From positions 32,001 through 96,000 of IMG/VR virus record IMGVR_UViG_3300045594_000287: 64,000 nucleotides of DNA; one strand, 5' to 3'. Made by a program: the position numbers and the translations under genes. Positions 9,501 to 34,108 of this stretch are shown piece by piece. The notes beneath the pieces are model-generated. The model made no database searches. It saw only the letters and a list, made by a program, of their open reading frames with translations, and was not told where the DNA came from. Position 1 is the first letter of the stretch, and every line of letters starts with the position of its first letter. This DNA is from a virus. Its lineage: Duplodnaviria; Caudoviricetes.

Positions 9501-12500
9501 TAACAGCGACTATGAAGACAAAGCTTTGTATGATGGTTATTTCGACAAATGGTCTCACAGCTGGTTGCCTACCCCATCGAATCCACTCTCCCCTATTCGA
9601 GCACTATTAAATCCATATTGGCTAGAAGAAAAACATGCAGACGATAGGCCGTATGCAATATCCGGCCCTTTGTTCCAGCAAGGAACGCCCTGGGGCGCGA
9701 TCCTTAATCCAACACTTGGACAAATTATAAAACCTCAGAAGGAACTGCATCCATGGAGATTGAATAACGGCATCGATGCAAAAAACCTTATTCATGAGGT
9801 TAATGAATATATTCACGCTAAGGCGAGAGACCTCGGCGGGCAGAATATGATCGCCTTGAAAGGCAACACGGCTACCCCTGTCAGATTTACTTCGTATGAT
9901 GCACCTACGGAAGATACGACATCTACATCTGTTCAGACAAAGAACGGGATGTTCTCTGACCCAAGAAGAGGAGTTTATGGAGTATATGATGGCGACGGTG
10001 GTCCAAATCCCGCAACTGGATTCACGAAATTCGGTAAAGGGAGCGCAGCCGCTGCATTCGTAGGAGCTCAATCCGGCTTGCCTGGATTACGAGATATGAT
10101 ACGGGCGAAGCTTTCTGGCGGATCCGGGCAGATGCCGGTACAAAATGGTGACATCATGCAGGACAGTAGAGGCAATCTCGGTGTATATCTACAACAGGAC
10201 AAGCCGGCTCCTATTGACAGCAGCTTGAACCTTGAAGACGAAATCGCAATGGATCGCATGATCCGTGGTGACATGGGTGGTATTAAGCGCACGGTCGGTG
10301 AAATCGTTCATGCTTTGAATCCAACCACGATTATCCAAAGATTGAACGACGGTACAAAGAAGAAAGCCGGTCAATCTGTATCACTTCATACGGCAACCAC
10401 TGATGAATTTGATACGGAGCAAGGCTTTATCAGTCCTGATAAGCTTAAAAATTATCGTCCTTCTCAGGGGATGCAACTCTTGGATAACCCAGATGATATG
10501 GCCGAACTTGTCCATGCCGGTAAAGGCTATGACTACGTCCATGATGCAGCCGTATCATGGCGCTTGATTTCTGGTATCTACGGCTATATGGCCGGAGCAG
10601 CTACTGGATTTGGAGTAGATAATAGGAAAAAGGTTGCAGACTCATCAGACATGACATCGTTCAGCAGAACCTTCTGGGATTCAAATCTCGGAGGCGCCGG
10701 CGGAGATATCATGGAGATTGCACGTCGTTTCATTCCTGACTTCCGTCGTTCAAATCGTGTGAGTCCTTTAATGAATGAGATGCCAGATTGGTTGCCTGAG
10801 CGATTCAAGTATGGTGATCCATATACCCTTCTTCCAAAAGGTGAAATGCGATTACCAGGTAAAGGTTATCTAGCGCTAAATAAGCTACATCCTGATCAGT
10901 TTGGTACATATGGTGCATATGATCGATTCAAAATTTTGGCTGATATCGCACCGATGACCCCAGAATACAAGATGTGGAGAACGATTGCCCAGAAGACTGT
11001 GACGGATCCAGACCTCAAAGAGGATATGGATGATATTCGTCAACGTGTTTCTCAACAGGGTAAGAAACATGATTTCTACGAATATAAATCCGTAGGACAT
11101 GGTTTGGACTACGAGACCGTAACGGTATCCAGCGTTTTGGGATATGGTAAATTTCGTTCGGGATCCAGTATCTATAAAGTCGCCGGAGTAAAAGTTCGCG
11201 GCAATGATAACGAGACTATGGACCAAGTGCTTGGGCGGTATCTCCATGTGGGACAAACCGTAACAGTAGCCGTAGATTCAAACCAGGCATATCGGACAAA
11301 TAGAGATACAGACCATACGATAGACGCTGCTGTGTTTGTCGGTGGAGATAATATCTCTAAACAGATGCTTAAGAACGGTGATGCCACGGTTCGCAAAGGA
11401 GACACGTCTTCTGCTGCTATTCTGGCTAACTATGGGCCGATCCAAAGAACAATCGGCTGGGTATCAGAATTGGTTGCTCACACGGATATTCCATGGCTGA
11501 GCGATCAGTTCTTGCGGGTCCGCTCCCCTCTCGAATCGTACAGAGCAGAACAAGTATATGGCACTCCATATCAATCATGGGATCACCCAATTGACTCTTA
11601 TCTAATGCCGGCATGGAATCGTTCCATTCATGGACGTTCCATTATGGGCACTATTGGTACTTATGCATACCAAGCATTACGCGGTGTACCTATGAGTGCC
11701 TGGGATAAGAAAGCACTATCTGCTGCTTATCTCTTCGGAAATCGCGGTGCCTTCATGGGCGCAGCGGTAACTAAAATGTTCTTTGCCAATGATGCGGAAA
11801 AAGTCATGAAGGGCGCGGATATAGGATCGAATCTGGTATCACTAGGGCATGTATTGACTGGTGGCAATAGCTACTTGGACGAAATGTCAAGCGCAGCTTC
11901 AATCGGAATGTCTGTTGCCAAGTACTTTGAAAAAGACAGTGGTAAGGGTGCCATTGCCGGAGCTCTCGTTGGAGCTGCGTATCGCACAGCAAAAGGACAA
12001 GCCGGCAAAGAATGGATACCAGAAAGAACACAGAAAAAATGGGAAATGCAGGATTACTTTGATCGTCTTACCTATATCAAATACACTGCTCTTTATAAGG
12101 CTGCAGCTAAAAAGGCTAAGTCTGAAGAAGGCGTAGACGTAGACAATCTCGTATCGTCAAGAGATTATAGGGAAGAAAAGCGTCAGAGTGCCCTCGAACG
12201 TTTCAAGGGTATAAAAGATGCTCTGCGCGGAACCAAGAGCAGTTACGAGCACAAGCAGATGATGAAGCTCTTGACAGGAAAAATCAATGCGCTCGACAAT
12301 GACACTACGATCATTGAAGGTGGAAAATATACCCATTCCGCTCTTATATACAAGCAAGCAGCTGAAGCTACGATGTATGCTCTGAAGAAAGGGTCTTCAT
12401 GGTCGCAGATCATCACAGCGTTGCCTACCAACGACAGAGAGTATTTTACAGAGTTCGTAAAAGAACGAGACCCTGGCAAGCGCTCTGATATATTGAAAAC

Positions 12501-12957
12501 AGCCTCCCCTGCTCTGAAAAAGGCCCTCAACCTGGCCTGGGGCAAGGATGTCAAGAAAGATGAAGATAACGAGACTTATTTTGCGAAGCATAACCTGCCG
12601 CAACTCAACTGGGCTGGTTGGCGCCCGGATACGGATCTCAAAAACGTAGAAGTGAAAACTATTGCCAATGAAGGTATGAGCTTATCTGATTTTGGTTATT
12701 ACGAATCGCAGCTTAGGGATCCGGACGTTATAAACGCCCCGTCTATTGTCAAACCAAAGCACAAGAACTCCCAAATGAATGGGGTGCGACGTAACCTGCA
12801 GAAGATCCTTGAAGGTCAAGGGTTAAAGAATGTGAGCGTCAACGTAACTGACAATGCTTTTGACGGACACCAAATAAAAGCAGATATAGGACTATTTACT
12901 GGCAAAAGACAAATTAACGGAATGGTAAAAGACCAGATGGACGAGAAAACAAGATAA
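6517..12957 (+). CDS. Tape measure protein candidate (2146 aa) with a degenerate SNase/OB-fold domain
   Basis: Lies immediately after two chaperones, is very large and largely helical, and has Gly/Ala-rich hydrophobic segments. An SNase-like segment is at ~11107-11400. Confidence 0.6.
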   Translation: MTREERLRRQQDMTNRDTSLRSTLTMAGEAAAAFGATAAFIRRTGNMPKIAKGMDMAKDFVSASGNYLPKKAWNDVTFTDTKKMFRDAKSELAKIREDYRLHPVRIDPYSNTSLVGTIHEMNSVLAVPGRTSEAVWRQNTVTAAGRDFMAQNFANLPRTSQEKFNNFISAVSASLDDRRKIAAVRKMAKFDPGEGAISDLLLTHMKQAAASDKAHEATKDITLQNMRSANKQFMKVDNLKKVFGYRKGPNEKSLDFVRKLTKEDDATVGDLLDPKNRDKVAHIPGYRAKKDQQVGESAIEILKNMYKNLKDKDAANHTNEAAEFLKVYVDKGRLKKTDGGELYSFNSPAHIRDKFLDFGAGTLPGQILKLRYFEYNHKAPVFQYIGLGSSDPLLAAAVGNNGKARSSEVGGNYLRIKNNIYHMNENGEANEVKGLEDFRYSSGKFGPGARVLRQIIGDTRYADGGNFITRKLDLFRDREENNGKAPGNGLLSVITKRDDEDWRGNVFKRFLSPTFEQKKAFQQGLIGSDISYSLDYLNKAEHMQNIIASNVFALSREVASQLSKNTTGRAQQLFEALGESDDAKMLDKIMHLSSGSLSTRGDYINADLTNWVEQFNANPQETLNMIRLKDDKEHLNISTSIFDLPSTKGNNQTKDAYEILRTEVAKEAMLQYASQASSDVSKKNYKALIDLVGSLDTDMSKKVEARHMAALAIFQDKTWINERIKGGLTDDGYRSLMNNVEMVMNGSNDEEDKFVRKSFKEVGNAIISPLEQRGEELTLEGPAQYNSWIAMRKMTTPLDFIRSLNDSTKAKAVGKRMFTQFWAGRDNPEDITEATLVPYFMLSRLSDAMNTVGLGFSKESMGSVGQLTKNIMLKRVLPAAVASTYLEWGDDTSQELTGTSVSGAMANGIANIDLASRKVMDTFGLTDWLKGEKSINPIMQYWGGHGEFQSWAERKKYYESGYDPVRKGAWWTFGGVNEARGGEIQYWQPSYARRINSDYEDKALYDGYFDKWSHSWLPTPSNPLSPIRALLNPYWLEEKHADDRPYAISGPLFQQGTPWGAILNPTLGQIIKPQKELHPWRLNNGIDAKNLIHEVNEYIHAKARDLGGQNMIALKGNTATPVRFTSYDAPTEDTTSTSVQTKNGMFSDPRRGVYGVYDGDGGPNPATGFTKFGKGSAAAAFVGAQSGLPGLRDMIRAKLSGGSGQMPVQNGDIMQDSRGNLGVYLQQDKPAPIDSSLNLEDEIAMDRMIRGDMGGIKRTVGEIVHALNPTTIIQRLNDGTKKKAGQSVSLHTATTDEFDTEQGFISPDKLKNYRPSQGMQLLDNPDDMAELVHAGKGYDYVHDAAVSWRLISGIYGYMAGAATGFGVDNRKKVADSSDMTSFSRTFWDSNLGGAGGDIMEIARRFIPDFRRSNRVSPLMNEMPDWLPERFKYGDPYTLLPKGEMRLPGKGYLALNKLHPDQFGTYGAYDRFKILADIAPMTPEYKMWRTIAQKTVTDPDLKEDMDDIRQRVSQQGKKHDFYEYKSVGHGLDYETVTVSSVLGYGKFRSGSSIYKVAGVKVRGNDNETMDQVLGRYLHVGQTVTVAVDSNQAYRTNRDTDHTIDAAVFVGGDNISKQMLKNGDATVRKGDTSSAAILANYGPIQRTIGWVSELVAHTDIPWLSDQFLRVRSPLESYRAEQVYGTPYQSWDHPIDSYLMPAWNRSIHGRSIMGTIGTYAYQALRGVPMSAWDKKALSAAYLFGNRGAFMGAAVTKMFFANDAEKVMKGADIGSNLVSLGHVLTGGNSYLDEMSSAASIGMSVAKYFEKDSGKGAIAGALVGAAYRTAKGQAGKEWIPERTQKKWEMQDYFDRLTYIKYTALYKAAAKKAKSEEGVDVDNLVSSRDYREEKRQSALERFKGIKDALRGTKSSYEHKQMMKLLTGKINALDNDTTIIEGGKYTHSALIYKQAAEATMYALKKGSSWSQIITALPTNDREYFTEFVKERDPGKRSDILKTASPALKKALNLAWGKDVKKDEDNETYFAKHNLPQLNWAGWRPDTDLKNVEVKTIANEGMSLSDFGYYESQLRDPDVINAPSIVKPKHKNSQMNGVRRNLQKILEGQGLKNVSVNVTDNAFDGHQIKADIGLFTGKRQINGMVKDQMDEKTR

Positions 12958-12960
12958 ATG

Positions 12961-12987
12961 AGCAGCTCCAATATGGAGCTGCTTTTT
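12961..12987 (+). terminator. Rho-independent terminator
   Basis: AGCAGCTCC-AATAT-GGAGCTGCT followed by TTTT. Confidence 0.85.
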
Positions 12988-13062
12988 GTCCATATACAGA
13001 TCGCAAAAGGGTAATGAAATAGTTAGTGAATACGTTAATGCAGGTAGACTGCTGATATAGAG

Positions 13063-16000
13063 GTGCGAACATTGAGACAGAATTTTATAAATGACGATTC
13101 AAAGAAAATCGTTGAAAGCAAAGTAAATGATCATATCGGGAAAATCACCAGAAACTCCGTCGAAGAGCAGATCCTTGAAAAAAGCGATAAGACAGATAAA
13201 AATCTGTATAATAAAAATATTGACCAGTGGAGAGAGATTCATGGCGCCGAAATAGCTAATGGACTTCTGAAGTCAACTGACGCGGTTGCGGGAATAAATG
13301 TCAGAGCGATAAAAAATACGCTGACAAACGCTCACAGTTCTCAGATCATAATGAATCCTTCTGAACTTTACGGGGAAACTCGTAAAAGTCGTTACCTCGA
13401 AGCAGACGTAAAAGAAGTCTACGAAAAAATGGGAATGGATGCCTTCGAGCACGTCCTTGACCTGAATGAAACTGGAAGCAAATACTTTGTAGGAAAAACT
13501 GCAACCAGTATTGCATTCCAGCATACTAACCGTGGTGTAAAACAGAACTATGACAGAATGATGGCCGGAATCAAAAACTCCGAAGAAAAAGGCCTGTTCG
13601 TAGACTGGGATACAGAAACCATGAGCGGAACTAATAAATTTGGAAAACAAATAGTCGACCAAATGACAGAGTTTACGTTCAAAGTTGCAAATTACGATGA
13701 CGGATCTATTGTAAAAGGACGTTCCTACGGCTCGATCATCGGTGCCACGGAAGCACAATACAATGACTACTTGAAAAAAATTGAACGCTATGAAAATGGT
13801 GGATCGCTTTCAAATTTAGATAGAGTTGAACTTAACCGCTTAGCTTTGATGGGTAAAAGCAAGGTCAAGGAAACCGAAAGCGGCATCCATAATTACTCCT
13901 ATTTCGCTGGTGCGGAAGAAGTAGCTGAAAACCGTTCAGAGGATATGCGTGCCGGCCTCGAGCAGTTATTTGGTATAGGTAAAGCTCAGCAAGCAAAAGG
14001 CGCCGTAGAAGAATATGGCGGGCAGAAAATGTTTGCCTGGGAGAAAAAACTATTCCAGGGCTTAGATGAAATCATTCAAAATGATCTCACTGCAGTCGGA
14101 CACAATACACTCACATTCGATAACGGCGTTATGCTTCATCAGTTGCAGCATGGAATGTGGTCTGCAGGCGGCAAGGCATATGCTGACCAAATGCTTAAAG
14201 CTACCAATGGATTGCATTTTGAGCATGAGAATGATACTATCGCGATGATTCGTCAATCCGTTCCAGATCGTCTTCAGATTTATCGCAATGCCGACGGTAC
14301 GTTAAACCAAGCAGCAATGCAGTACAACAAAGAACATGGTCTTACACTATTCCAGCAGGAAGCGATTCAGAATGCAATGAATAGTGACTTCTATGCTTCT
14401 ATTGGTGCTGCTCATACGTCAGATGTCGACGTACAGGCAAATGCTATGATGTACGCTTCAAATAAATTGAAGCTCAATACGGAAGAATCGTTCTTCAAAG
14501 GAATGCCGGAGTCTGCTCCATCGATCCAGCTGACTGGAGGAAGTAAGCAGCTACTGTATGCAATGGAAGGCGGCGGCATAGAATATAAGGGACTGCTGGG
14601 TTTTGTAACAGATCCATTGACTGGAGATATTCGCACATCTGATAAGTATCGGATGAGTAAAGTACCTACGGGCGGAGAAATGGCTTCAGAAGTAAACAAA
14701 GACTTCTTTGCCACTGGCAACATTCACAAAGGTGTATCATACACCATAAGCAATGCAACAAAAGTGGAGACGTCAGACGAGTTCCGCGACCTTATCGGGA
14801 AATATAGGCCGGGGATGGATGTCCGCAGTCTGGTAGCCGTACAACTTATGCCGGTATCCAATTCAAAAACAATGCGGGCAAAAACACCTTACACTTTGAT
14901 TGGATCCATGACCGATGTGCAAGACTATATCAATCATACTTTTTTGCATACTGGACATGCCGTTGAAGACTCCCAGGGACATAGAACCTGGACTGCCAAT
15001 GGCATTCCGGAAGAATCGAGACGACTTCTTCAGGTAAGAGAATTTGCCAACGACGGTGTCCATGCCGGATTTAAGGATTATTCTCTCGAAGACCAGCTTG
15101 CTGAAAGCTCCTATCGTCTTACGAATGAATCTGCTGCCAGAGTAGTCCGTGCGCATGAACTGAAAAAAGACGTTGGCGTATTACGATACGTTCAGGATAT
15201 GGATAAGTATGCCCGGGAAAACGCTATCGATCCGACTGATGAATATCAGATGGAAAATATGCGGCAAAAATTCCGCGACAGCGTATTCAGCCGTTCAAAA
15301 AGCATCGAATCCAAAATTCGCAGTGGAAAAGGGTACGAAGCAGAAGAAATGGTTGGAACGTTCCACGACTATTTCGGGTATATAGATCGTGATACGAAAA
15401 ATCCAATGGTATGGTCAGATACGGTCATGTCAGCTCTGGATCGCGAGGGATATGTTCGTAAAAACCAGCAAGTGATTTCCGGCGCTATTAAACATGCCTA
15501 TGCAAGAGCAGGCGAGTCTGTTACTGATCAAGACATTTCTCATATGACTGCCCTTCAGAAAAAGAACAAAGAAGCTTCCGCCTACTATAGAATGTACATG
15601 GAGTCTGCTACAGATGCAGCTATCCGTAAATTTGGATCAGGCCGGCCCGTAGGGGAGCATCGGATGGGTATCCATACATACGAACTCAACCAGTTTGAGT
15701 TTGACATGAATGGTTACAAAGGGAATTTCAATCCAGACAATGATATATTTAGTGTCCATCTCGGTGAAAATGGCAATACGATGGTCAATCGTTTGCTGCG
15801 TCATCAAGGCTTGCGCACAGACATATCTGATGAAGCAAAGATTGCCGAGCTGCGTAGATTTCAAAAATTTATTGGTGGATCCGAAACTCTCAGTGAGCTG
15901 AATTCAACCAGAAGAGAACTTCTGGAAAAAAACAACTTAATCAACATTGGTGAAGATACAATAGACTCTGCTGCAACGAAGATTATAACCCCGCTGCAGA

Positions 16001-19000
16001 ACTCTCGTCAGTACCAGCCGGCAGGCGGTCGTATTACTCCTACGCTGAAATACGAGCTTGCCGCTTCCATGGAGAACATGGGACTTGATAACCCTGAGGA
16101 GGTGTTGTCAAAAGCAGATAAAACGATCCCCAAGATTTCTATATATAGTTCTAAAACTGGCGCAGACAGCTATGCACACGATATCGTTAACAGCGTATTG
16201 TTCAACGATCTTGATGGGAAAACACTCGATGAAGTAAGAGACGACCTCCAGGAGTATGGATATACTCGTGAGCAGGCAGAAAAAATCATCGCTATGAGAG
16301 AGCAGCGCAAGGCTGATGCGCAGCCGTTCATGAAACGACTGATCGAAAGTGTTCAAAAAAATGGAGGCTCAATCGGATATAACGCAGAAGATCGTGAGGT
16401 GTTCGTAAGCCATAAAGGGAAGACAACAAAATTAAATAATCTTCCCATGGATGAATACTCCAATGGAATGTTCTATACCAGGGTGAATAATTCAAAAGTC
16501 CATGCATCGTCAGGATTCTACGCTACTGGAAAGTATAAAGATGGAAAAGGAACTTTGAAGTTCGGTTCATCGTTATTGAAAGCTGGAGACAGCGTAGGCT
16601 GGATGGATACAGCTATCGCCAGAGGTGCTGAAAACGGAGACCTTGGAGATGAGGTAAACAGCGTCCTTAGTGGGTATGCGAAGGTTATTCGTGAAAATTC
16701 TTCTATCATGGAAGAAGATCTTCAGGACATGCGTGGGCAGTTTGACATTAACTATCGCGAAGTAGCCCCGTTTATCGAAGATAACTGGGATCAGATATCC
16801 CAAAATATGGTATTTGATGATTCGCCTCAGGGGCAGATAAACCAGATTCTAAGAGATGCTGCGATGGACGGTAAACTTAGTGGTGACCGGCTTAACTTTG
16901 AGTTGAATTCTGCCATCATCCAGAATGCAGACAACATCTTGCCAGTAATGGCACAAAAATATGGTGGAAGCTATGCACAGACCATTATGTCTGGTTTTTC
17001 TCTCAATATGAAACATGCTGGAGAACTTAAGGCCAGCGCAACAGAAATAACGAATTTTGGCGACGACTTAGATAGTGGTAAGCGTGACGTAGCAAGCTTC
17101 ACAGGACGTGCTTACAAATTCCGCGCGGATGGAAAAGTTGATGGTGTTCGTATAGGACAATCTGTAACATCTGAGATAGCAGGTAATTATGCAGAAGACG
17201 CCGGCGAAGGAATCTCATACGGTGTAGATACAACACTTCGTACTGGCCGTGTACGAATGACAACCAGCGGGCTGCGTAATCTCGTAAATAGTGCAGACAT
17301 CGACAATGACTATGTACGAGACGTGTTGACTGGAATACATTTGGACGAAGGATCTGCTGCTGCCGATCCTAGACTTATAGATCAGTATTTCACTAGACGT
17401 AAGTCTATGCAGAGAATCGCAATGCATCGAATCTTTGACATGGACAAAGATACAATCGATAACCTTAGCACGAAGCAGCATACTGCTCCAATTCTAAACA
17501 TTGACCCTAAAACGGGTAATATCAGTTTCACGTATTCGAACGGCCTATTCGTAGAAAGCACAGACTTGTCGGGAGAAAGCCCGATTAGCGTCAAAGGATT
17601 CCAGGGTGCAAAAGAAGAAGTTGCAATCAAAGAAGCTGGTTTGTTCAACGTTGGCTTCTTCTCGAAGAAGGGTAATCTTTTTGCTGACCAGCAGAGCGTA
17701 ACAGATCTTTTAAATAGCAAGAAATACCATGGCCGCATCGTGAATGCAGAAGATTCGCGTCTAGAGGCTCTTAACGTCCTGAATGAAGTATACAACGCTT
17801 CGTTCTACAATCTGTCACTGGATGCCAACGGAAATACAAAACTCGGAGAACAAGCAGAAAAAGGCATGTATAATGCCCTATTTGCTACGCCTGGAGCAAT
17901 AGATAAACGTGTAGGAAGCACATTAGACCGACTAGGCCTTAGCAGCATGAAGGATCTTGTGCCGAGGTTGGATTTCATCGAATCCCTAAACGCGAAAGAT
18001 ATATCAAAAACTCCATTGGGAGCAATGATCAGTGCAAAAGCTGGACGTAACGTATCTCATGATGAGATTCTAAAAGTAATCGGCAGTGAATTTAACAGTG
18101 CGAAAAGCATGTACGATGCAATGATGGAAGAGCGCTATAAGCCATGGGATACGCTCGAAAGTATTGCTCGTAATGCTAATGTTATAAAAAATGGAGAAAC
18201 GGTCCATGCTTTCAGCAACACGATTGCTGCAGAGAATAAGCATTTAAACGCACGATCCGTCTTGAGAGTTACAGATAACCTCCTCGAAAAATATAATGGG
18301 GATGCCCAAAAAGTCGCATCATTGCTGCAAGAAGCAATGCCAGGGATTCACGTTGGTGGCAGCGGGCGGCTGTATCACAGTGGAGATATTGATATTGATG
18401 CTGTGATGGAAATAGCGAATAAGGAACTTGACGGCAACGTAAGAACCTTCTACACAAATGGAAACAAAACCATTTCAGCAGAACAATTCAGCATGCTTCC
18501 TGAAGGCGAAAAAGGAAAATGGAAAAAGAACGAATCCAGTTATGCATACACTGAATTAATGCAGCTCCCAGACCAGGACCGTGAGCGCTTAAGTGACGAG
18601 AATGGAGTTGGCAAGACCCTAAAGATGGATCATCGTACCAAGGCAATGCTTGATACCCAGGTCTACAGCAAAGAAGGTCTTAAGAATGTTCGTAATGGCT
18701 TTGTTGATTCAATGGGCAAAGAAGCTGGCGAAGCTCAGTATCGTAAGTATTTTATGGATGCCCAAAACGGAAAACTTGTGGCTGAAGGACTTAGCGACAA
18801 GATAAACGATTCAAGGTATTATGATCCAGGAGATAAACGCGTTGCTATCGATGGAGGACAAGATTTAACTAAAAAAGACAAAGAAGAAATAAGCAAGGCA
18901 AAGGAAGAGCTTAGAAAATCTGGAATAAACAAAAAGATTGCTGACCAGATAATCGAAGAAGCTCGAACCGCCGGAGTTAAAGACGTTGGCGTAGGGGCTA

Positions 19001-21714
19001 TTAAGAAGCAATACTCTTACAATATGTATAGCGTTGCAGATGACTTCAACAGAAAAGGCGGACTAACTAAAGATGACATGATCAAAAAATGGGGGTACAA
19101 AGAACCTATTTCCTTGACCAGCTTAATCACCGGCGCAAGCGATACTGTCGGACTCGAAAAATCTATGTATGGATCGAATACGCTTATAGATTTACATATA
19201 CCTGAACTGGGTGACCATCAGATATATGATGATGAAGCCCATCGTTATATGGCATTGCCTTGGGCTGATCCTAAAACAATGGGATCTTCAGATGAACTTG
19301 CTAGAACAGCATATCAGAAAAAAATTGCGGGCATGCAAAATGTTGTAAATCGAATGCGTCGAACAGCAGATGAAAACAATGGCCAAATCACAGATAAGGA
19401 AAAAATTGAAATCCAAGCAGATCTAAAAAATCGAGTAACCCAAACACATGAAGCGATTGCCGCTCAACTTGTACAGAAGAAAGGCTTAATGGCTCAAGCT
19501 TCAGAAGCTCACTTCGGAGATGCTGGTTTCAACAAAGCTTATGGTATACAGCTCGAAGGCAACGAAAAAGGATTCTGGGGAAACATAAACTTTGATGGGC
19601 TAAATATCTCAAAAGAAGCTGGGAAGGGAGAAGCCGGATTAGAGATTGATTACCAAGTGGCTGGAATGAAAGCGAGGAATCGTTTCTATAACGATAAATA
19701 CTTCAAGTCATTAGGCCTGGATGAAGAAACGACAAAAGCTATCCAGGAAAATACATTTGATCGCTTGAACAACGGCGGAACATTATCATTGAATATCCGT
19801 AACCCACAGGGTTACGATAAATCGACCAGCGCCGCAGCAATGTATTTTGACAAATCAATAAAAGGTAACACACTTGCTACATCTGCAGTGATGTGGGAAT
19901 CCAAAAAAGGCGATTATGACTCAGATGAAGCTGACTTCAAAATCCTTAAAGGCCGTGCCACTATCGTTGGGAATAATGGCAAGCAAACGGTAACTGATAT
20001 TGACTATGCTACTTATCAGACGCTGCAGCAGGCCAAAGAAAAAGGCATAATCAAAGATATATCGATGTCCGAAGAAGGACTTAAACTCTTCGCAGACACT
20101 AAGAAATCAATCATGTATAACGCCGCAGACCGGAATAAAGCTTCAAGGTCTGAACTCGGGAATACTGAATTGGGGCAGGGAGAGTACAACTACAGTAAGT
20201 TATACAATGAGTCTCTTGAAGGCAATGGCAACGTTGATAAGGTTGGCCACCATCATTTAACAACGGGGCTTAGAGAGCTTGCTCCTGAACGAAAAATGCA
20301 GCTGGCAAATATCTATAAAGATACTGAGCAAGCAGTCATTAATAAGGTTGGCCAGGAAGCATACGACAAACTGGATAACGCATCTAAGCGATCTGAATAC
20401 TTCAATTATGTCTCTGAAAATATGACTGGAGAAGCTTCAAACGAAGCGCGTAAAGCTGCAAGCTTTAATTTCAGAGTAGAGCGAAGCGCTCAGGATGCCG
20501 AAGCACGAGCGCGTAAAGTTGCTGCCGGCGAAATGAATGACGCAGTGTTCAAGTATTTCCGGGTAGCTGAGCAGGCTAAATTCTCTGACGGGTCAAAAGT
20601 CTATAGCGGTGAAGATCTGAAGGCAATGGCTCAGGTTCATACTGCATTGAACGAGGCGTTCTTATCTCCTAAGAACGAAAAAGGTGTTGGCAACATCTCA
20701 ATTGCTTCACAGTTGAGAGATGCTTTCCAGGACGTGTATCATGCAGCCAGGAGCAATAGCTTAAATACAGAAGCCAGAGAGAAAGCAAGAAACAAACTCA
20801 TTGACATCATTGACCCGATCATTCAAGGCAGGCGCGGGAAAGAAGTTGCAAAGATCCCGGGGATGGAACTTGATGCTGAGGGCAAGGCTACTGAGGCTGG
20901 AGCAAGGCATGCAGCAGAAATATTCGCATCCGTAGCCGACAGAGTAAGTTTAGCCGGGGTAAATATGAACACCTTGAATATGGGTGTTACTAGCGGGGCT
21001 ACCTCAGACGGAATCATGCACGCCGCATACCAACGTGCCAGTGACAATATGATCATGGATATGGCTGAACATCAGGCAAACATCCAGAGAAAGATAAATG
21101 GTAATGGATACAGCTCAATAGAGGAATCTACTGGCATTCACGCCTTCAGAGGATACGAAAAAGAAAATGCCGAACTCATGAGAGAAAATGCAGCTGAGGC
21201 AGCACGCAAATTAAAAGACTATGAAAATGGGAAGGCTCCAAACTTATCCGATGCCGTACCTGTCAGTAGAGGATTGGGGAAAGAAATCGGAGAAGCCTTA
21301 TCACACATGAAGATTACTGGTAAAGGCTTTGCAAAAGGCATGCTGGGAATTGCAGGTTCTCTTCTTGTTTCTGGGTATGCCAACAATCCGAGTGCCCCAG
21401 CAAGCAGCCAGCCTGCTCCGGCTGAGACTCAAGCTCAAGGAGCAACCGACTCAGCCAATGGGATGTCTGAAACTCAAGTGCCAAATCTATCTGACGGAAA
21501 TGTGAATGTATTGAGGGGCGGTCCGAAGTCAGGATACGTAATCAATATCAATGCCACATCGCCAAGAGGACAATCAGCAGCACAAAACGCCATTAGCCAA
21601 GCGATTGGAGGAGCTGTTCCAATGAACTCTTCTATAAATGTTGCCACCAATACATCGTACAAAGATAAAATAGACCAATTCCAAATTGGCAAAATCATAG
21701 AAGGAATGTTTTAA
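13063..21714 (+). CDS. Giant 2883-aa protein: N-terminal DEDDh 3'-5' exonuclease domain plus putative single-chain two-barrel RNA polymerase (candidate virion RNAP)
   Basis: Exonuclease motifs WDTET, GHNTLTFD and AHTSDVD. Polymerase-like motifs TKLGEQAEKGM, IRNP...GDYDSD, AGEMN and AFLSPK. The GTG start position is uncertain. Confidence 0.6.
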   Translation: MRTLRQNFINDDSKKIVESKVNDHIGKITRNSVEEQILEKSDKTDKNLYNKNIDQWREIHGAEIANGLLKSTDAVAGINVRAIKNTLTNAHSSQIIMNPSELYGETRKSRYLEADVKEVYEKMGMDAFEHVLDLNETGSKYFVGKTATSIAFQHTNRGVKQNYDRMMAGIKNSEEKGLFVDWDTETMSGTNKFGKQIVDQMTEFTFKVANYDDGSIVKGRSYGSIIGATEAQYNDYLKKIERYENGGSLSNLDRVELNRLALMGKSKVKETESGIHNYSYFAGAEEVAENRSEDMRAGLEQLFGIGKAQQAKGAVEEYGGQKMFAWEKKLFQGLDEIIQNDLTAVGHNTLTFDNGVMLHQLQHGMWSAGGKAYADQMLKATNGLHFEHENDTIAMIRQSVPDRLQIYRNADGTLNQAAMQYNKEHGLTLFQQEAIQNAMNSDFYASIGAAHTSDVDVQANAMMYASNKLKLNTEESFFKGMPESAPSIQLTGGSKQLLYAMEGGGIEYKGLLGFVTDPLTGDIRTSDKYRMSKVPTGGEMASEVNKDFFATGNIHKGVSYTISNATKVETSDEFRDLIGKYRPGMDVRSLVAVQLMPVSNSKTMRAKTPYTLIGSMTDVQDYINHTFLHTGHAVEDSQGHRTWTANGIPEESRRLLQVREFANDGVHAGFKDYSLEDQLAESSYRLTNESAARVVRAHELKKDVGVLRYVQDMDKYARENAIDPTDEYQMENMRQKFRDSVFSRSKSIESKIRSGKGYEAEEMVGTFHDYFGYIDRDTKNPMVWSDTVMSALDREGYVRKNQQVISGAIKHAYARAGESVTDQDISHMTALQKKNKEASAYYRMYMESATDAAIRKFGSGRPVGEHRMGIHTYELNQFEFDMNGYKGNFNPDNDIFSVHLGENGNTMVNRLLRHQGLRTDISDEAKIAELRRFQKFIGGSETLSELNSTRRELLEKNNLINIGEDTIDSAATKIITPLQNSRQYQPAGGRITPTLKYELAASMENMGLDNPEEVLSKADKTIPKISIYSSKTGADSYAHDIVNSVLFNDLDGKTLDEVRDDLQEYGYTREQAEKIIAMREQRKADAQPFMKRLIESVQKNGGSIGYNAEDREVFVSHKGKTTKLNNLPMDEYSNGMFYTRVNNSKVHASSGFYATGKYKDGKGTLKFGSSLLKAGDSVGWMDTAIARGAENGDLGDEVNSVLSGYAKVIRENSSIMEEDLQDMRGQFDINYREVAPFIEDNWDQISQNMVFDDSPQGQINQILRDAAMDGKLSGDRLNFELNSAIIQNADNILPVMAQKYGGSYAQTIMSGFSLNMKHAGELKASATEITNFGDDLDSGKRDVASFTGRAYKFRADGKVDGVRIGQSVTSEIAGNYAEDAGEGISYGVDTTLRTGRVRMTTSGLRNLVNSADIDNDYVRDVLTGIHLDEGSAAADPRLIDQYFTRRKSMQRIAMHRIFDMDKDTIDNLSTKQHTAPILNIDPKTGNISFTYSNGLFVESTDLSGESPISVKGFQGAKEEVAIKEAGLFNVGFFSKKGNLFADQQSVTDLLNSKKYHGRIVNAEDSRLEALNVLNEVYNASFYNLSLDANGNTKLGEQAEKGMYNALFATPGAIDKRVGSTLDRLGLSSMKDLVPRLDFIESLNAKDISKTPLGAMISAKAGRNVSHDEILKVIGSEFNSAKSMYDAMMEERYKPWDTLESIARNANVIKNGETVHAFSNTIAAENKHLNARSVLRVTDNLLEKYNGDAQKVASLLQEAMPGIHVGGSGRLYHSGDIDIDAVMEIANKELDGNVRTFYTNGNKTISAEQFSMLPEGEKGKWKKNESSYAYTELMQLPDQDRERLSDENGVGKTLKMDHRTKAMLDTQVYSKEGLKNVRNGFVDSMGKEAGEAQYRKYFMDAQNGKLVAEGLSDKINDSRYYDPGDKRVAIDGGQDLTKKDKEEISKAKEELRKSGINKKIADQIIEEARTAGVKDVGVGAIKKQYSYNMYSVADDFNRKGGLTKDDMIKKWGYKEPISLTSLITGASDTVGLEKSMYGSNTLIDLHIPELGDHQIYDDEAHRYMALPWADPKTMGSSDELARTAYQKKIAGMQNVVNRMRRTADENNGQITDKEKIEIQADLKNRVTQTHEAIAAQLVQKKGLMAQASEAHFGDAGFNKAYGIQLEGNEKGFWGNINFDGLNISKEAGKGEAGLEIDYQVAGMKARNRFYNDKYFKSLGLDEETTKAIQENTFDRLNNGGTLSLNIRNPQGYDKSTSAAAMYFDKSIKGNTLATSAVMWESKKGDYDSDEADFKILKGRATIVGNNGKQTVTDIDYATYQTLQQAKEKGIIKDISMSEEGLKLFADTKKSIMYNAADRNKASRSELGNTELGQGEYNYSKLYNESLEGNGNVDKVGHHHLTTGLRELAPERKMQLANIYKDTEQAVINKVGQEAYDKLDNASKRSEYFNYVSENMTGEASNEARKAASFNFRVERSAQDAEARARKVAAGEMNDAVFKYFRVAEQAKFSDGSKVYSGEDLKAMAQVHTALNEAFLSPKNEKGVGNISIASQLRDAFQDVYHAARSNSLNTEAREKARNKLIDIIDPIIQGRRGKEVAKIPGMELDAEGKATEAGARHAAEIFASVADRVSLAGVNMNTLNMGVTSGATSDGIMHAAYQRASDNMIMDMAEHQANIQRKINGNGYSSIEESTGIHAFRGYEKENAELMRENAAEAARKLKDYENGKAPNLSDAVPVSRGLGKEIGEALSHMKITGKGFAKGMLGIAGSLLVSGYANNPSAPASSQPAPAETQAQGATDSANGMSETQVPNLSDGNVNVLRGGPKSGYVININATSPRGQSAAQNAISQAIGGAVPMNSSINVATNTSYKDKIDQFQIGKIIEGMF

Positions 21715-21717
21715 CTT

Positions 21718-21744
21718 AGCCGCCTACGGGCGGCTTTTTATTTT
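21718..21744 (+). terminator. Rho-independent terminator
   Basis: AGCCGCC-TACG-GGCGGCT followed by TTTTATTTT. Confidence 0.9.
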
Positions 21745-21750
21745 CCTCAA

Positions 21751-21811: not shown

Positions 21812-21862
21812 ATAGCCTTCTACAAAGAGTAATAATACAGGTAGTAAAAGGAGGATATATTC

Positions 21863-24800
21863 ATGGCTAACGAAAATACGACTGAAACAGTAAACAAAGA
21901 CGTTGCGGCTGCTGCCGATCATGTCAACAACATGGATTACCGTGTCTCTGATAAGAATTTCAAGACCCCTGAAATGGGAGATTTTTATATTGGTGCTGTA
22001 GATAGCACATATCTTAAAAGACTGGATGAAATAGTAAATGGAAAGGGAGAAGGTGAAGGAGACGATAAGAATGCCGCCTTCTACACTGAAGCCCCTCCGG
22101 TAAAAGAGCTTGGAGAAACACCTACGTCTCTGTTCGTGAAAGCTCATGTTAACATTTCCCAGGATGATATCGATAACGGATTGTGCAACGGAAACACTTT
22201 GAATGTAAGTCTTGATGGCATTGTCGGCGATTCCGAAGGAAAAGCAGTAAGCAATATTCAAGCATCTATGTTTAACAATACATTCAATACACCAATGGTT
22301 GGAACGGAAAGTAAAAATATTTCTGTTCGTCTGGTAGGAATGAAATGCCCAGCTAATCCGAAATGGGCTCAAGAAAAAGGAGTTAAAAAGGACTCTATAA
22401 AAATGAAGACAGTAGCTATAGGGGATGCCGCAAAATCCTCTGACTATGTTTTTGCTAACGGCATCCACGATAAGTCCGAAACGATTACGGTTGCTTATAT
22501 CGGAAATAAATGGAGAGAGATAACCATTTACAACCAAGACGACAATGTAATGGATTTTCGTTGGTGTGTTGATAGCGGCGACTCTGATGGAGGAAGCAAG
22601 GATTCCGGAGGCGTTACTGCAGCGAATAACTTAAAGAAACTGATTGATAGTGCTAATGGAGAAGTGTATTTTCTATTAGATAAGAATTCTTGTCCAACTC
22701 AGTTTGCATCAACATCGAGTGATATTTTATCTGATAGCAGCGCGATCCAACAACTGGCATCATGGAATAAGACTAACGACAATTCGAGCAACGGCTTAAA
22801 CCAAGTTACTCAAGATGCAGCAGCCAGATTCATAGGAGCTGCCTATGTAAAACGTGATGGAAAATGGATAAATCTTACGAAAGCAGCCCTTACGGACGAT
22901 TCTAACCAAACGCTGTCTGCTGATACCTCATACGATGGTAAATGTAGAGACGTTTTTAAGCCCGCACGCTATGATAAAGATTCGGTCAACTACGCCGATG
23001 CGTTTATGAAACTTACCGATGAAATTGACGATCGTAAGAAAATCCAACATGATATTTTCAACTCAACTCCAGAAGATCTTCGCAAATGGACAGTCACTAT
23101 AGGCGACGTAACATTATTCGTCCCCCCGACAAGCATTACGTGCACCTCTGAAATTGAAAACGAGCGGTTACCAATGCTGAGATCTAAAGGCAGCATGGCA
23201 AAAACAGGCCGAAGAAGTGTGCGTCATATCCAGATGCACATATACTTTAACGAGGAGCGGGGGATTAACGGGTTCAAATATGAAGCAAAGACTCCGAATG
23301 GATCTGCTATAAAATACTCTATCAATGGACTACGATCTTTAGTCGCTCAGTTTAAGTTCGTTCCGTATGTACCGATTGATAATGAATACATCAATGAAAC
23401 GCTTGGAATAAGTGCTGTAACTGTAAATAATCTCAGCGTAAAAAACGTAAATGGTTACCCCCGTTTATTGGATGCTACGCTGACAGTTACTGAATTCGAC
23501 TATACCGTATACATGCCAGAAGCTACGCTTACAGGTATAGACAATGGCGGATTCGTTAATTTTTTTGCAGCTGCTATAAATTGGCCAACTATGCGCTATT
23601 ACTACCAGCGGGCACTTTCGTATGGAGATTCATTCAAAGAGAATGGATTAACTTACAATTCTTCCGACTATAACAAGGCAATCATTAAGAATCGTACATC
23701 GCTGATCCCAATGTCGTTTACCGACCCAAATGTCAAATTTTATGTTGCGAGTGCAGATTACCTCGATAAAATGTTACAAGCCAAGCTTAATGCAAAACGC
23801 GGCAAGGGCGATAATAATATTAGCTTTACGCCTGATGAAAAGAATGCAGCAAAAGATCTTGGAACAATATACGATGCAATAGACGCTTGTAAGAACGACG
23901 GAGAATTTCAGAATGCACTTGCTAAATTGAATTCCAGAGATTTAGCCTGGAGTCCGAAGTACTCTGAAAACGGCAACTACATAAACCTTACGGGTGATAC
24001 AGCGTTCTCAGGAAAGGAACAATATAGCCAGGGCATGGTTAGCGGTACAAATCTCTGTATGGTCGCAAGTGGATACACTGGGGATCGTGAAGGAGTAGAA
24101 AAAGACCTGAATGGCGCCCTGTCTCTTTTAAAAGCCCATATGGATGAGGTCAATGAGAAGGCGGGAAAGACTATTCTCTCTGATCCAAAATTCTATATAA
24201 AATGTAGCGGAGGCAATGACGAACGTAAATTCTCTGCTGGTGTATCTTACGCAGTAAACCTTGAGTATCTTTCTACGGATGCGAATTACAATGACATAAG
24301 AAAAGACGTGTCGAATTATATCGATGCGAACTCAGAAGACTTCTTCAATGATCGTCGCATAAACGTTCCATTGTCGCTTCCATTGAGCAACCCAAGTGAA
24401 AATTACAAAACAACAGTGATGCCTAAAAATGGAGAGCTCTCGATCGACATGGACAATAAAGATGTTGCTTTTCTGAAGTATTGCCAAACTCTTGGCAAAG
24501 AAGCTCCGGATCCGAATGACACGAAACGTATCAGCTTTGTCAACCTTAATCAGCTCGATAATCTTTATTATGAAGAGTATACGATGCCTGAAACACGGGT
24601 ATCGAACTGGAGCGTGGCGTTGACTAACCACATCTCAAATCTCAATGTATGCGAGATATCCGGCTCTTCTCCTCAGTATCTTGGTGGTGAAGATTTGGCC
24701 ATTACCATGGAGGTTACCACCACAAGCGATGAAGTCGTAAAGAAATTATCCTGCCTGCCACAGATCTGTGCAGCATATGGCCGTAAATATCATAGCATTC

Positions 24801-27800
24801 TCCCTGCGAGTGTGATCAAAGTTCAGTCAGAATTTGCCCAATTCTTTGGTGTGAATGAAGTGCTAGTCCAAAATGTACAAGTAGACACTACTCCAAATCT
24901 CCCTTCTGTAAAAACGATAACAATAGAGCTTATATCCAACGATAGAAGCTTACGCAATCGAGAAGCTTTGAATAAAATTGAAGCGGATAACGCAGGAAAG
25001 ATTGGAGGAAACGAGCAAGCTGACCGCTCGATAAAGAGTTACTTCGACATCGAAAAGACGATTGCGCAAGCAGAACTGTATCCAGATCTTGAACTTCCTA
25101 CGATAGATGAAATGCAATCTGCTGGCTGGGATTATGTAAGATATAAGTTCCAAGATGACAGAAAATATGTTGATCCAGATTTCTACTTCCTATACTTGAA
25201 TACATTGAGTTCTCAGATCATCAGAGAATCAATTATCACGTCAAAAGATTCGGGGGCAGGGGCAACAACAACGTGGAAGGATTCAACTGGCGCAAATATC
25301 AAAACGGAAATGTCTGCTCGTAAAGGCTTCAATGTAATCGCAAGAGATGCTAAAGCGCAAAAGCAGAAAGATAAAGTTATTGCTATACAGAACTCAACGA
25401 ATAAGCTGAACTCAAAAGATCTAACTGAAAATCTTAGGGATTCTAATCTGTCAAATGCAGAAGCAGCTGACGGCACGGAAACATGGGATATCTGTGAAGA
25501 CATAAAAGCGGTGTTCCTTGAAAAGGGGTATAAGCAAGAGTATGATTCCTATCAAGCTCGCGTTCATGCTCAGCAAGTAAGCGGTACAACTGGAAATGCT
25601 GGTGCTATTGACATCAGCGGGACTGACAAGACAGCAACGCAAACTGCTGCCACTTCATCAACCACGGCAGCTACGAATACCACAGATACATCTTCGAAAG
25701 CAGCAGATACCACGAGCGATTCCTCAGATACCGAAAAAACAGATGATGCAACAAAATCCGACAGTTCATCTGGAGATATCCAAACAGAGGGGAAATGGGT
25801 AGCTACCCAGCTTGCAGATGCACAGAAAGCGTCAAAAGCTATTGAAGAGTATCTAAACGGAACTGGCATAACAGAAACCGTAACCGACAATAATGTAGTA
25901 AAAGAAGCTGCTTCTAAGCAGTCTGCTTCAAACGTCTTGTCCACAAGTGTTGGAAAAAGCGACACTCCGACGACTGCAGGAACGAGCGAGGCATCGACGT
26001 CAGATAAAACAACCACAACATCAACAGAAAAAACATGCCAGGACAATTCGATGGAAAGCAAGATATCCGAAGCAGTAAATAAATTCTTTCAGGATGCATC
26101 CGTCCAAGCAATTCTTGGGTTCTTAAATGTTGAATACACGAATGAAACATTCCTGGCTACAGTTAGAGATATCGTTTATGCTGCTGCTTGTGCAGCCACT
26201 GGCGAAAAAGAATACTCAAATAAAGACCAAGCTACCGGATGGAGGCCGTCACCTGACTTCATTGGTGTCGTAACAGGTAATGGTCAGGATGATAGCAACA
26301 CCACACTAGCAAAAACAGTTGATGAAGCAATGGATAGGGCCATAGAATTTGGTTGCTTTAAAATAAAGCAATACGACAGTTCTACATTTCTTAAGATGAC
26401 CGGGGAAAGCCCAAAAGACGTGTGGGGAGGCAGCGAGGATACCAATGCAACTCACTTTTTAATTGATCCATACTACAGAAGCAAATCGATTGAGGAAATT
26501 AAGCAGTACAAAAAAGGATGTATCAACAATGCAAGATTCTGCACAATGGCGTACCTTCGCATCATGCTGTATTGGTTGAAAAAGTTGATTGACATCCAAG
26601 CTTTCCCAGCAATGACTGCTGACGTATTAAGGTCGGCAGCCAAAAACGAAATGTCCATTATTCAAAAGAACAAAGAAAAAAATGTAGATGGCGACATGGA
26701 TAAATCTATGGAACAGCATTTGAACTTTTTCAGCAAACGGTCGTATGCAGTAGATGCCGGAAAGTTTTGGACAGCATGTACCCTAGCATCAGGTGATGGG
26801 AATACAACTATTTTTGATCGAATTAAAAAGCGTGATTATCGCGGTTTGAATGGTTACATCTCTGGGTGTTCTAAGCCGGCAAGCTTTATCGATCCTTCCG
26901 ATAATGGAAGTTTAGCTGTACGTAAAATGACCCTCGCTTTGGTTGGCAAAAAACGAATTAAAGATTCGGATGCTATAGGTGTTCCACAAAATACGCCTGC
27001 CACTACCTACATGAGAGACCTGTCAGAAAAAAAATATATTGAAGCAGCAGAAGATCCAGCAACTTACTGCATGCATGCTTGTCACGATATGATAGTAAAC
27101 GATGCAAGAGGGCGCATGCTTAGAGCTTTTCCTACGTACTACATGATGTTCATAGATGAAGGCAGAGAAATCGGCATGTGGAAGCTCCATGACAACTTCT
27201 ATAACAATATGTGCATTTCCAGTATCCAGGTCGTGAAATCCAGAAAACTTCCGGCGGATACGGCTATTGTATGTATGAGTAACTTCTACCAGTCATTCAC
27301 AACTGAAAATGAAGATTATCAAAAAGTAGAAGAAGAAACCTGGGGCAATACATTCAAATCTATTATGAGTCCATTCTTCTCGGATGATTATGGTAAGGAG
27401 CAAGAAGCCAAACGCAAATCGGCACCGCCTGAAGATAAGATACGACTCCGCCCGGGTGCACGCATTCATATCCGTATGGGGTACGGATCAAACGCAGCCA
27501 TGCTGCCGGTTGTCTTTAACGGTAACATTGCGGAAGTAACCGCTACAGACACCGTTGAGTTCCAGGCCCAGGGTGATGGCGTGGAGTTGATGAATCCAAT
27601 CGTAGATGATACGGAAGGACATCAAATTATAAATCAAGATAGCCTGGTGAAAGGTTGGTTTACCAACGGAGGAACTCCGAAAGATATCATGAACGCCATC
27701 CTGACTTCTTGTGGCGGAATCATAAAAGCCGCTATGAAAGATCTCGGACGTCAAGATCTTCTCGGTAGAAACCCATACGGAATTTATCATTTTGGTAATC

Positions 27801-31689: not shown

Positions 31690-31722
31690 TCGAGTTGAAG
31701 AGCTTGTTAAAGGACTGATATT

Positions 31723-32781: not shown

Positions 32782-32793
32782 GGTGATTGTATA

Positions 32794-33309: not shown

Positions 33310-33312
33310 AGA

Positions 33313-34107: not shown

Positions 34108-34108
34108 C

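Follow-up and report, generated by a model that had tools for sequence, protein, structure and literature searches.

A predicted exonuclease-RNA polymerase giant in the tape-measure slot of a 0305phi8-36-like jumbo phage

Introduction

Injected RNA polymerases allow a phage infection to start independently of the host and, to our knowledge, only a few architectures of such enzymes have been described: those of N4, the crAss-like phages, phiKZ/AR9 and P23-45. Here we describe a further candidate, gB, a giant protein encoded within a 64,000-nucleotide stretch of DNA from a virus of the Caudoviricetes (positions 32,001 to 96,000 of IMG/VR record IMGVR_UViG_3300045594_000287, hereafter the window), whose C-terminal half is predicted to fold as a single-chain two-barrel RNA polymerase.

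Virion-module giants that hide a single-chain two-barrel polymerase are already known, in the form of crAss-like gp66 and P23-45 gp96. The latter, which is also found in P74-26, G20c and TSP4, is a virion two-barrel RNA polymerase fused to a tape measure, and exists alongside a non-virion enzyme, gp64 (Chaban et al. 2024, PMC10770324; PDB 8H2M/8H2N). In two-barrel RNA polymerases the aspartate triad of a DxDxD motif in one barrel binds the catalytic Mg, and the active site receives a pair of conserved basic residues, lysines, from the second barrel (PMC7824862). A bridge helix and a trigger loop follow the catalytic barrel and are conserved in all RNA polymerases compared (PMC10770324).

In the window, gB is the second of three consecutive giant genes on the plus strand (gA, gB and gC; Table 1), which lie 3' of sheath and tube-like genes and 5' of baseplate genes. 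A preliminary description, made from the sequence alone, had proposed on the basis of short motifs that gB is a divergent single-chain polymerase of the two-barrel type, a reading that is supported by the fold matches and the invariant predicted catalytic columns reported below. The reading frame is open from a GTG at 13063, from which residues are numbered here; the true start is probably the TTG at 13072, which has GAGG 8 nt upstream and gives the 2,880 aa of the database gene call.

Results

Predicted catalytic residues are invariant in a large family

The gB translation contains RNP at residues 2246-2248, GDYDSD at 2283-2288, KLGEQAEKGM at 1593-1602, AAGEMN at 2487-2492, AFLSPK ending at 2537 (codon 20671-20673) and D1428-E-G. 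Every motif listed in the preliminary description was thereby recovered at the residue given for it, as was the 38-residue distance from R2246 to D2284, and the reference spacings that it quoted are also accurate: R425 of E. coli beta' lies 35 residues before D460, and beta carries K1065-x7-K1073-G. To gauge how much weight such motifs bear, we generated 20,000 shuffles of gB, of which 21% contained DxD[GSA]D alone, 0.26% contained RxP-x(30-40)-DxD[GSA]D and 93% contained K-x(6,7)-KG. Judged on a single sequence, the Asp loop together with Arg-Pro is a mildly improbable product of chance, and the Lys pair is uninformative because it is found in nearly all shuffles. It is conservation across the family that makes the motif observation solid.

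A word-indexed search identified six gB homologs with 25-36% identity. A profile run against 1.84 billion representatives yielded 115 cluster representatives (clusters at 50% identity); nearly all were 2.5-3.8 kaa long, and the part that matched lay at a corresponding place along the protein. When 119 sequences were aligned to a 1,098-column core profile, only nine columns were invariant: K1593, K1600, G1611, P2248, D2284, D2286, D2288, G2489 and K2537. P2248 and the Asp triad were invariant in 111-112 representatives, K1593 and K1600 in 103 of 103, G2489 in 93 of 93 and K2537 in 89 of 89; E1599 (99%), G2239 (97%) and R2246 (96%, otherwise K or H) were nearly so. The motif of the family reads [RK]-x-P, 34-37 residues, D-x-D-[GSAT]-D, with an Arg-to-Asp spacing of 38 in 96 of 108 members; the fourth loop position is G, S, A or T, and many members carry the canonical DxDGD. 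The preliminary description had said that its reading would fail if homologs did not conserve the three Asp, the Arg and the Lys pair; all of these are conserved. D1428, part of the D1428-E-G that it had counted among the motifs, is not conserved in the family.

Sequence searches with gB returned zero matches in Pfam, PHROGs, NCBIfam and PDB sequences (the last also searched with a whole-family profile and an exonuclease profile), and tblastn of gB and of the divergent members P0104 and P0063 against 50,697 phage records found no match. The polymerase families PF00623 and PF05183 had no match in the genome, PF05183 giving none in gB or the genome at E up to 10. By hhalign, a 7-sequence family profile gave nothing significant against E. 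coli beta and beta', and a 102-sequence profile gave a non-significant E of 0.065-0.074, with the NADFDGD loop as the top beta' segment. We found no description of the gB family in the literature or in domain databases, a 2026 jumbo-phage review included. A pattern scan of the genomes of 185,579 species gave 22 matches, none of which was confirmed, and identified no host. One family member resides on a 2.58-Mb contig (L003; ENA ERZ21549408 contig_407), for which a prophage, a phage-plasmid within a host assembly or a chimeric assembly is conceivable, and which might point to the host.

The polymerase half is predicted to resemble beta and beta' subunits

An AlphaFold2 model of gB residues 1460-2650, built from 30 sequences, had a mean pLDDT of 85.6 and a pTM of 0.83. 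Foldseek returned 76 matches to the PDB at E ≤ 0.001, and the best 50 of these 76 were all RNA polymerase beta' chains (E down to 3e-5, probability about 1). In a VIA-align comparison with 48,161 representative chains, ranks 1-16 were occupied exclusively by two-barrel polymerases. The strongest matches were to Pol II, vaccinia, Pol I, archaeal A', Pol IV and Pol III (Z 8.1-9.2; Pol II Rpb1 at Z 9.2 with 362 residues aligned), and others were to QDE-1 and RDR2 (both 8.1), the AR9 and phiKZ non-virion enzymes (7.9), Mycobacterium tuberculosis beta' and African swine fever virus (7.8), P74 gp62 (7.4), P23-45 gp96 (5.8) and phi14:2 gp66 (5.7, 415 residues aligned). VIA re-scoring of the Foldseek list gave a best Z of 11.2 and 348 chains at Z ≥ 8. 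The best scores were therefore to the largest subunits of multisubunit enzymes (Z 9-11) and not to YonO/crAss-type enzymes (Z 5.7-9.1). Among viral predicted structures, we found matches to jumbo-phage and giant-virus polymerase subunits, crAss giants, phi14:2 gp66 and P23-45 gp64, together with uncharacterised giants of Acinetobacter phage ME3 and a siphovirus 'minor tail protein'.

The modelled half divides into a beta-like module followed by a beta'-like module (Table 1). The region of the candidate second double-psi beta-barrel (DPBB-B) is made up of strands at model residues 67-75, 118-126, 132-137 and 140-145, the last two of which form the beta-hairpin that bears the Lys pair. Matches to single-chain enzymes (QDE-1, RDR2, gp62, gp96 and gp66) begin at this Lys hairpin, at model residues 123-127, and those of QDE-1 and P74 gp62 run from about 125 to about 1190, spanning both motif regions. 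VIA alignments of the beta'-like module to Rpb1, beta', A' and NRPD1 start at about 485-540 and end at about 1190. Isolated double-psi barrels (VAT-N, CDC48-N and a designed DPBB) align to model residues ~690-860 with Z 5.5-6.7; in the strand-rich domain there, a strand ends with RxP and the loop that follows holds the Asp triad. As modelled, this barrel thus carries the DxDxD triad that is one of the defining traits of the two-barrel superfamily. The preliminary description had made its reading depend on double-psi barrels too, and the matches to isolated barrels, together with the two-barrel polymerases that fill the top ranks, indicate such a fold around the Asp triad, with DPBB-B as the candidate second barrel. 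In addition, the Rpb1/beta' alignments reach the end of the model, and a candidate bridge helix and a candidate trigger loop are present in gB.

What carries the two-barrel inference is the uniformity of the fold-match list taken together with the pattern of conservation. On these grounds, we consider it highly probable that the core of gB is a two-barrel polymerase under catalytic constraint.

An N-terminal exonuclease domain is fused to the polymerase half

The preliminary description had dealt only with polymerase motifs. To these our analysis adds a DEDDh (DnaQ-like) 3'-5' exonuclease domain close to the N-terminus of gB. In a model of residues 4-1200 (m33b7729c472c; pLDDT 83.1), the top 50 VIA matches were all exonucleases of the DnaQ fold, with Z up to 12.6; Pol III epsilon aligned with Z 12.3 and an rmsd of 2.9 over 170 of 174 residues, and E. 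coli ExoI ranked first in Foldseek (probability 0.98). The modelled domain thus combines the DnaQ fold with the D-E-D-D and H-x4-D residues of the DEDDh class. These five residues (D183, E185, D353, H451 and D456) do not vary in 28 sequences and vary little or not at all in 55, and the exonuclease is intact and active-looking. Exonuclease matches filled the fold-search list for this model, so that the list says little on residues ~484-1200, which lie in a middle region of beta-rich and helical domains. Following the polymerase half, only ~230 residues remain, with one weak hydrophobic helix; the C-terminal module within them is kept across the family.

gB occupies the tape-measure slot of a 0305phi8-36-like tail module

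The flanking giants have clear homologs in phage 0305phi8-36. There, sheath, tube, a tube paralog and chaperonins are followed by gp145, gp146, gp147, a gpV-like gene and baseplate genes; according to the annotation, mass spectrometry detected gp145 and gp146 (a 'hypothetical tape measure protein') in virions, and gp147 is annotated as a baseplate hub with cell-wall-degrading domains. gA matches gp145 and gC matches gp147 (Table 1). By blastp, gA also matches Moorella phage CDS0026 (6e-106) and KLEB27-3 gp033 (6e-87), and gC matches Moorella CDS0032 (4e-108) and KLEB27-3 gp035 (3e-88), as well as phrog_20474 (1.8e-177); hydrophobic segments lie at gC residues 2285-2396. When gA, gB and gC were compared with one another, no similarity was found. 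The order sheath, tube, chaperone-position genes, gA, gB, gC and baseplate recurs in five of the six homolog loci that we fetched, the sixth (L004) being a 13-kb contig too short to show gene order. gB is thus embedded in a late structural module. Because its neighbours match gp145 and gp147, it is the occupant of the tape-measure slot and not the neighbour of a tape measure. Of the earlier proposal that gB lies next to the tape measure and hub genes, the hub therefore stands, in the form of gC, which is not recognisable as a tape measure, and the slot annotated as the tape measure is that of gB itself. No tape-measure family signature from Pfam, PHROGs or NCBIfam was found in gB.

gB weakly resembles gp146 in no more than the ~95 C-terminal residues (blastp 4e-4; 1e-5 with the C-terminal profile of the family), where the two are collinear at their C-termini; gp146 contains no DxDxD, and the profile of the gB family core does not match it. 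More generally, the flanking giants are constant among related phages and the content of the slot varies. Moorella phage MTATph1 has clear gA and gC homologs, with a shorter middle slot that is interrupted by a transposase and whose proteins lack a DxDxD motif and a core match. The region in question (L020:15512-22868; record 30512-37868) holds a 1,309-aa ORF, a transposase gene and three short ORFs, which suggests that the middle giant of MTATph1 was disrupted by insertion. On one homologous contig of metagenomic origin, a Rep3-type plasmid replication initiator gene (L002:7884-9269, minus strand) lies between the gA and gB homologs.

The terminase of the contig is closest to that of MTATph1 (43%), followed by 0305phi8-36 and its relatives and by Acinetobacter phage ME3. 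Related contigs reach 204-260 kb. No tRNAs were found on the contig. Tube-position proteins in the window (1049-1687, 1801-2709 and 4590-5240) match phrog_9206 ('major head protein'), a label that is probably wrong in this lineage, since the Moorella tube-position genes carry it too.

Terminator-like hairpins followed by T-runs lie on both sides of gB (Table 1), as the preliminary description had noted. The window contains just two copies of a 22-nt motif, AAAGRGTAATRAWAYAGKTAGT (13006-13027 and 21824-21845), one between a terminator and the gB start and the other between a terminator and the gC start; zero copies are expected by chance, for a pattern that was itself built from those two copies. 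A candidate promoter word, AATRCAGGTAG, was discarded because its frequency is no higher than chance.

A second, split polymerase candidate lies upstream of the window

Two adjoining genes, P0121 and P0122 (genome 4982-9056), are encoded about 23 kb before the window on the strand opposite to gB. Neither product had a family match. In the ESM Atlas, P0121 falls among viral RNA-dependent RNA polymerase (RdRP) clusters of PF05183 with a score of 0.95, and it has a TM-score of 0.51 to a cluster that is 98% PF05183. Three related IMG/VR genomes encode the giant, and each of them also has homologs of the split polymerase (E 4e-93 to 2e-22). Together, P0121 and P0122 are a candidate for a second, split two-barrel polymerase of the YonO/RdRP-like type.

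Small leftward ORFs preceded by conserved leaders lie in the 2.4 kb that separate the split polymerase from the rightward genes. Three copies of a ~45-nt leader ending in GGGGAGAAAGAGGT plus ATG are spaced ~250-300 nt apart (L007:9670-10350, minus strand). These GGGGAGAAAGAGGT repeats could be early promoters or leaders.

Table 1. Features of gB, its flanking genes and the split polymerase locus. Coordinates are those of the window unless prefixed L007.
Feature	Position	Strand	Details
gA, 2,146 aa, 0305phi8-36 gp145 homolog	6517..12957	+	blastp 2e-75
Terminator-like hairpin upstream of gB	12961..12989	+	hairpin 12961-12983, then TTTTTGT
gB, giant ORF	13063..21714	+	open for 2,883 codons from GTG 13063
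DEDDh (DnaQ-like) 3'-5' exonuclease domain (predicted), residues ~175-483	13585..14511	+	D183, E185, D353, H451, D456
Middle region, residues ~484-1499, beta-rich and helical domains	14512..17559	+	modelled to residue 1200
Beta-like module (predicted), residues ~1500-1940, candidate second barrel DPBB-B	17560..18882	+	
Lys-pair motif K1593-x6-K1600-G	17839..17865	+	on beta-hairpin of model
Beta'-like module (predicted), residues ~1944-2650	18892..21012	+	
Catalytic barrel DPBB-A (predicted), residues ~2149-2319	19507..20019	+	
RxP and putative metal-binding loop	19798..19926	+	R2246-x-P2248, 35 residues, D2284-x-D2286-S-D2288
Candidate bridge helix, 49 residues, 2456-2504	20428..20574	+	AAGEMN with G2489; model helix 997-1045
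Candidate trigger loop, helix-loop-helix, residues 2516-2563	20608..20751	+	FLSPK; model helices 1057-1075, 1087-1104
C-terminal module, residues ~2745-2883	21295..21711	+	Gly-rich hydrophobic helix, P/A/Q linker, GYVININA domain
Terminator-like GC hairpin downstream of gB	21718..21745	+	hairpin 21718-21735, then TTTTATTTT
gC, 2,755 aa, 0305phi8-36 gp147 homolog	21863..30130	+	blastp 5e-70
P0122, 643 aa	L007:4982-6913	-	adjoins P0121
P0121, 697 aa	L007:6963-9056	-	DFDGD ~46 residues from end

Discussion

From the fold, motifs, conservation and synteny observed, we infer an activity, a packaging route and a timing for gB, and judge it reasonably likely that gB is an exonuclease-RNA polymerase that is built into the tail, is ejected and initiates early transcription independently of the host, with the small split polymerase acting later. 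The phage would then probably inject its own transcription enzyme. On this reading, gB would be a multi-domain enzyme of a 0305phi8-36-like jumbo myovirus, encoded in the tape-measure slot. Within residues ~1500-2650, one barrel would provide Lys1593 and Lys1600 and the other the Mg-binding Asp2284, Asp2286 and Asp2288, after Arg2246-x-Pro; a bridge-helix-like helix (with G2489) and then a trigger-loop-like hairpin (with K2537) would follow. The protein would be made late together with the tail and become part of the virion, probably within or at the tail lumen; it would enter the cell with the DNA and transcribe the first phage genes without the host polymerase. These early genes would include the split YonO/RdRP-like polymerase, which would later take over, so that gB and the split enzyme would mirror the virion and non-virion pair of P23-45. 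The exonuclease may serve in trimming nucleic-acid ends, in host takeover or in editing RNA 3' ends.

Several observations weigh against this interpretation. Sequence-based methods tie gB to no known polymerase family. In the structural comparisons, the Foldseek TM-scores are low (~0.13), Z-scores of 8-11 are rated 'middling' by VIA for large models, and the fold of the Lys-bearing barrel was searched only within the whole 1460-2650 model. Fusion to an exonuclease of the proofreading type is a usual feature of DNA polymerases and not of RNA polymerases. As gp146 is without the polymerase core, its detection in virions transfers to gB only by position and by weak C-terminal similarity. Finally, the phage is uncultured, known from a linear IMG/VR contig that is ~45% complete.

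The strongest rival accepts the active two-barrel polymerase and denies its delivery by the virion. gB would be made late and act inside the cell, for example in late transcription, priming or RNA-templated synthesis, its tail position being a matter of operon history. Separate regulation is possible, because gB forms its own terminator-bounded unit and shares its upstream 22-nt motif only with gC, and enzymes of the QDE-1 type copy RNA too (PMC9508822). Against this, the slot between gp145-like and gp147-like virion genes has been kept in the five ordered loci and in three cultured relatives, the gB family weakly shares a C-terminal module with a virion-detected protein, and a smaller second polymerase is already available for intracellular work. 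Moreover, the known structural-module polymerases (N4, crAss-like and P23-45) are all virion enzymes (PMC10770324). We therefore regard a purely intracellular role as unlikely.

The exonuclease raises a different question, namely whether gB might be a two-barrel DNA polymerase, or a primase-polymerase, with a proofreading exonuclease, analogous to archaeal PolD. Carrying a DnaQ-type exonuclease and a polymerase in one chain is what marks out replicative DNA polymerases, Pol III epsilon and exonuclease domains of DNA polymerases are among the best exonuclease matches, and PolD has the same two barrels as RNA polymerases (PMC10770324). However, no PolD chain was among the structural matches listed, which are filled by RNA polymerase subunits; the alignments continue past the catalytic barrel into the bridge helix and trigger loop region, elements that PolD is reported to lack (PMC10770324); and a replicative enzyme within a tail operon would be unprecedented. 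These points make a DNA polymerase very improbable.

That gB is instead a structural tape-measure or ejection protein retaining a dead polymerase-like fold is hardly tenable: although its slot is the 'tape measure' of 0305phi8-36, the slot proteins of related phages are without the motifs and its C-terminal hydrophobic module resembles theirs, the sole invariant residues in more than 100 representatives are the Asp triad, the Lys pair, the RxP proline, G1611, G2489 and K2537, and the exonuclease catalytic residues are invariant or nearly so, a pattern that points to selection on catalysis and not on a scaffold.

Returning to gB as an ejected enzyme, a more speculative and in our view doubtful extension is that the middle giant of 0305phi8-36-like jumbo myoviruses may be a chassis for delivery through the tail lumen, in which a conserved C-terminal module would provide anchoring and the enzymatic cargo would be exchangeable, with the flanking giants constant. 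The swaps would then be the absence of a polymerase from 0305phi8-36 and the Moorella phage and its presence in KLEB27-3 and the gB phage. Under this extension, the exonuclease and RNA polymerase might process and transcribe the entering DNA end without promoters or host factors.

If gB is what we propose, it represents a large family (115 clusters at 50% identity) that is almost solely metagenomic and belongs to contractile-tailed jumbo phages. It would be a new combination, an exonuclease with a single-chain beta/beta' core, invisible to Pfam, PHROGs, NCBIfam and PDB sequence searches, and would extend the P23-45 idea of a tail-travelling polymerase to an unrelated phage lineage. Its very diverged sequences would be useful for tracing the evolution of two-barrel polymerases, and a distant homolog in the cultured Bacillus phage KLEB27-3 makes the idea experimentally testable.

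Comparison with known systems

The distant homolog is gp034 of Bacillus phage vB_BauM_KLEB27-3 (UNY39803.1, 'structural protein', 2,434 aa), a phage on which we found no paper. Like gB, it is flanked by gA and gC homologs in the corresponding slot, and it aligns to the family profile by hhalign (93.7% probability, E 1.9e-7, 215 columns) with its motifs, RYP, 37 residues and DYDGD, in register; its C-terminal module also weakly matches that of gB (whole-sequence E 4e-5, best domain 4e-4). It differs in lying beyond the reach of tblastn and in having an N-terminal region that matches the profile weakly (E about 1e-3).

Multisubunit beta/beta' enzymes (bacterial, archaeal, eukaryotic and phiKZ/AR9) gave the best scores, with Z 9-11.2, and share the beta-then-beta' order with gB. 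Compared with E. coli, the distance from RxP to Asp is 38 instead of 35 and the Lys pair is K-x6-KG instead of K-x7-KG. Unlike these enzymes, gB is one chain and a tail-slot giant, with Ser as the fourth loop residue, and no alpha, omega or sigma partners for it are evident. SPbeta YonO and the RdRPs (QDE-1 and RDR2; PF05183) resemble gB in being single-chain two-barrel enzymes, and the QDE-1 and RDR2 matches cover both barrels. gB carries no PF05183 signal, however, and it is P0121 and P0122 that are the candidate YonO/RdRP-like enzyme of this phage.

crAss-like phi14:2 gp66 (PDB 6VR4) is likewise a virion-module protein of more than 2,000 residues with an embedded single-chain two-barrel polymerase, and its match spans both gB motif regions (model 127-1191), although it is weaker than the match of gB to multisubunit polymerases. 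phi14:2 is a podovirus, and gp66 has other domain surroundings, no exonuclease reported and no sequence similarity to gB. P23-45 gp96 is similar in being a tail-slot giant that hides a single-chain two-barrel polymerase recognisable only by DxDxD, in a phage with a second, smaller two-barrel polymerase elsewhere in its genome; both giants were missed by sequence annotation. Its structural match to gB covers ~250 residues between model residues 126 and ~1125 (Z 5.6-5.8). The polymerase of gp96 is flat and clamp-less and takes up the N-terminal ~1,100 residues, after which comes a long tape measure that includes membrane and metallopeptidase domains (PMC10770324). In gB, by contrast, the predicted polymerase lies in the C-terminal half (~1500-2650 of 2,883) and is preceded by the exonuclease, and the ~600-residue connector between its motifs aligns with the N-terminal parts of beta'/Rpb1. 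gB has no gp96-type tape-measure fusion, with no peptidase family found by Pfam; it belongs to a contractile-tailed jumbo phage and gp96 to a siphovirus, with no sequence similarity between the two. What is new relative to gp66 and gp96 is the 0305phi8-36-like jumbo myovirus lineage, the C-terminal position of the predicted polymerase, its large beta'-like connector, which gives better matches to multisubunit enzymes, the lack of any detectable sequence relationship to described families and the fused DEDDh exonuclease domain.

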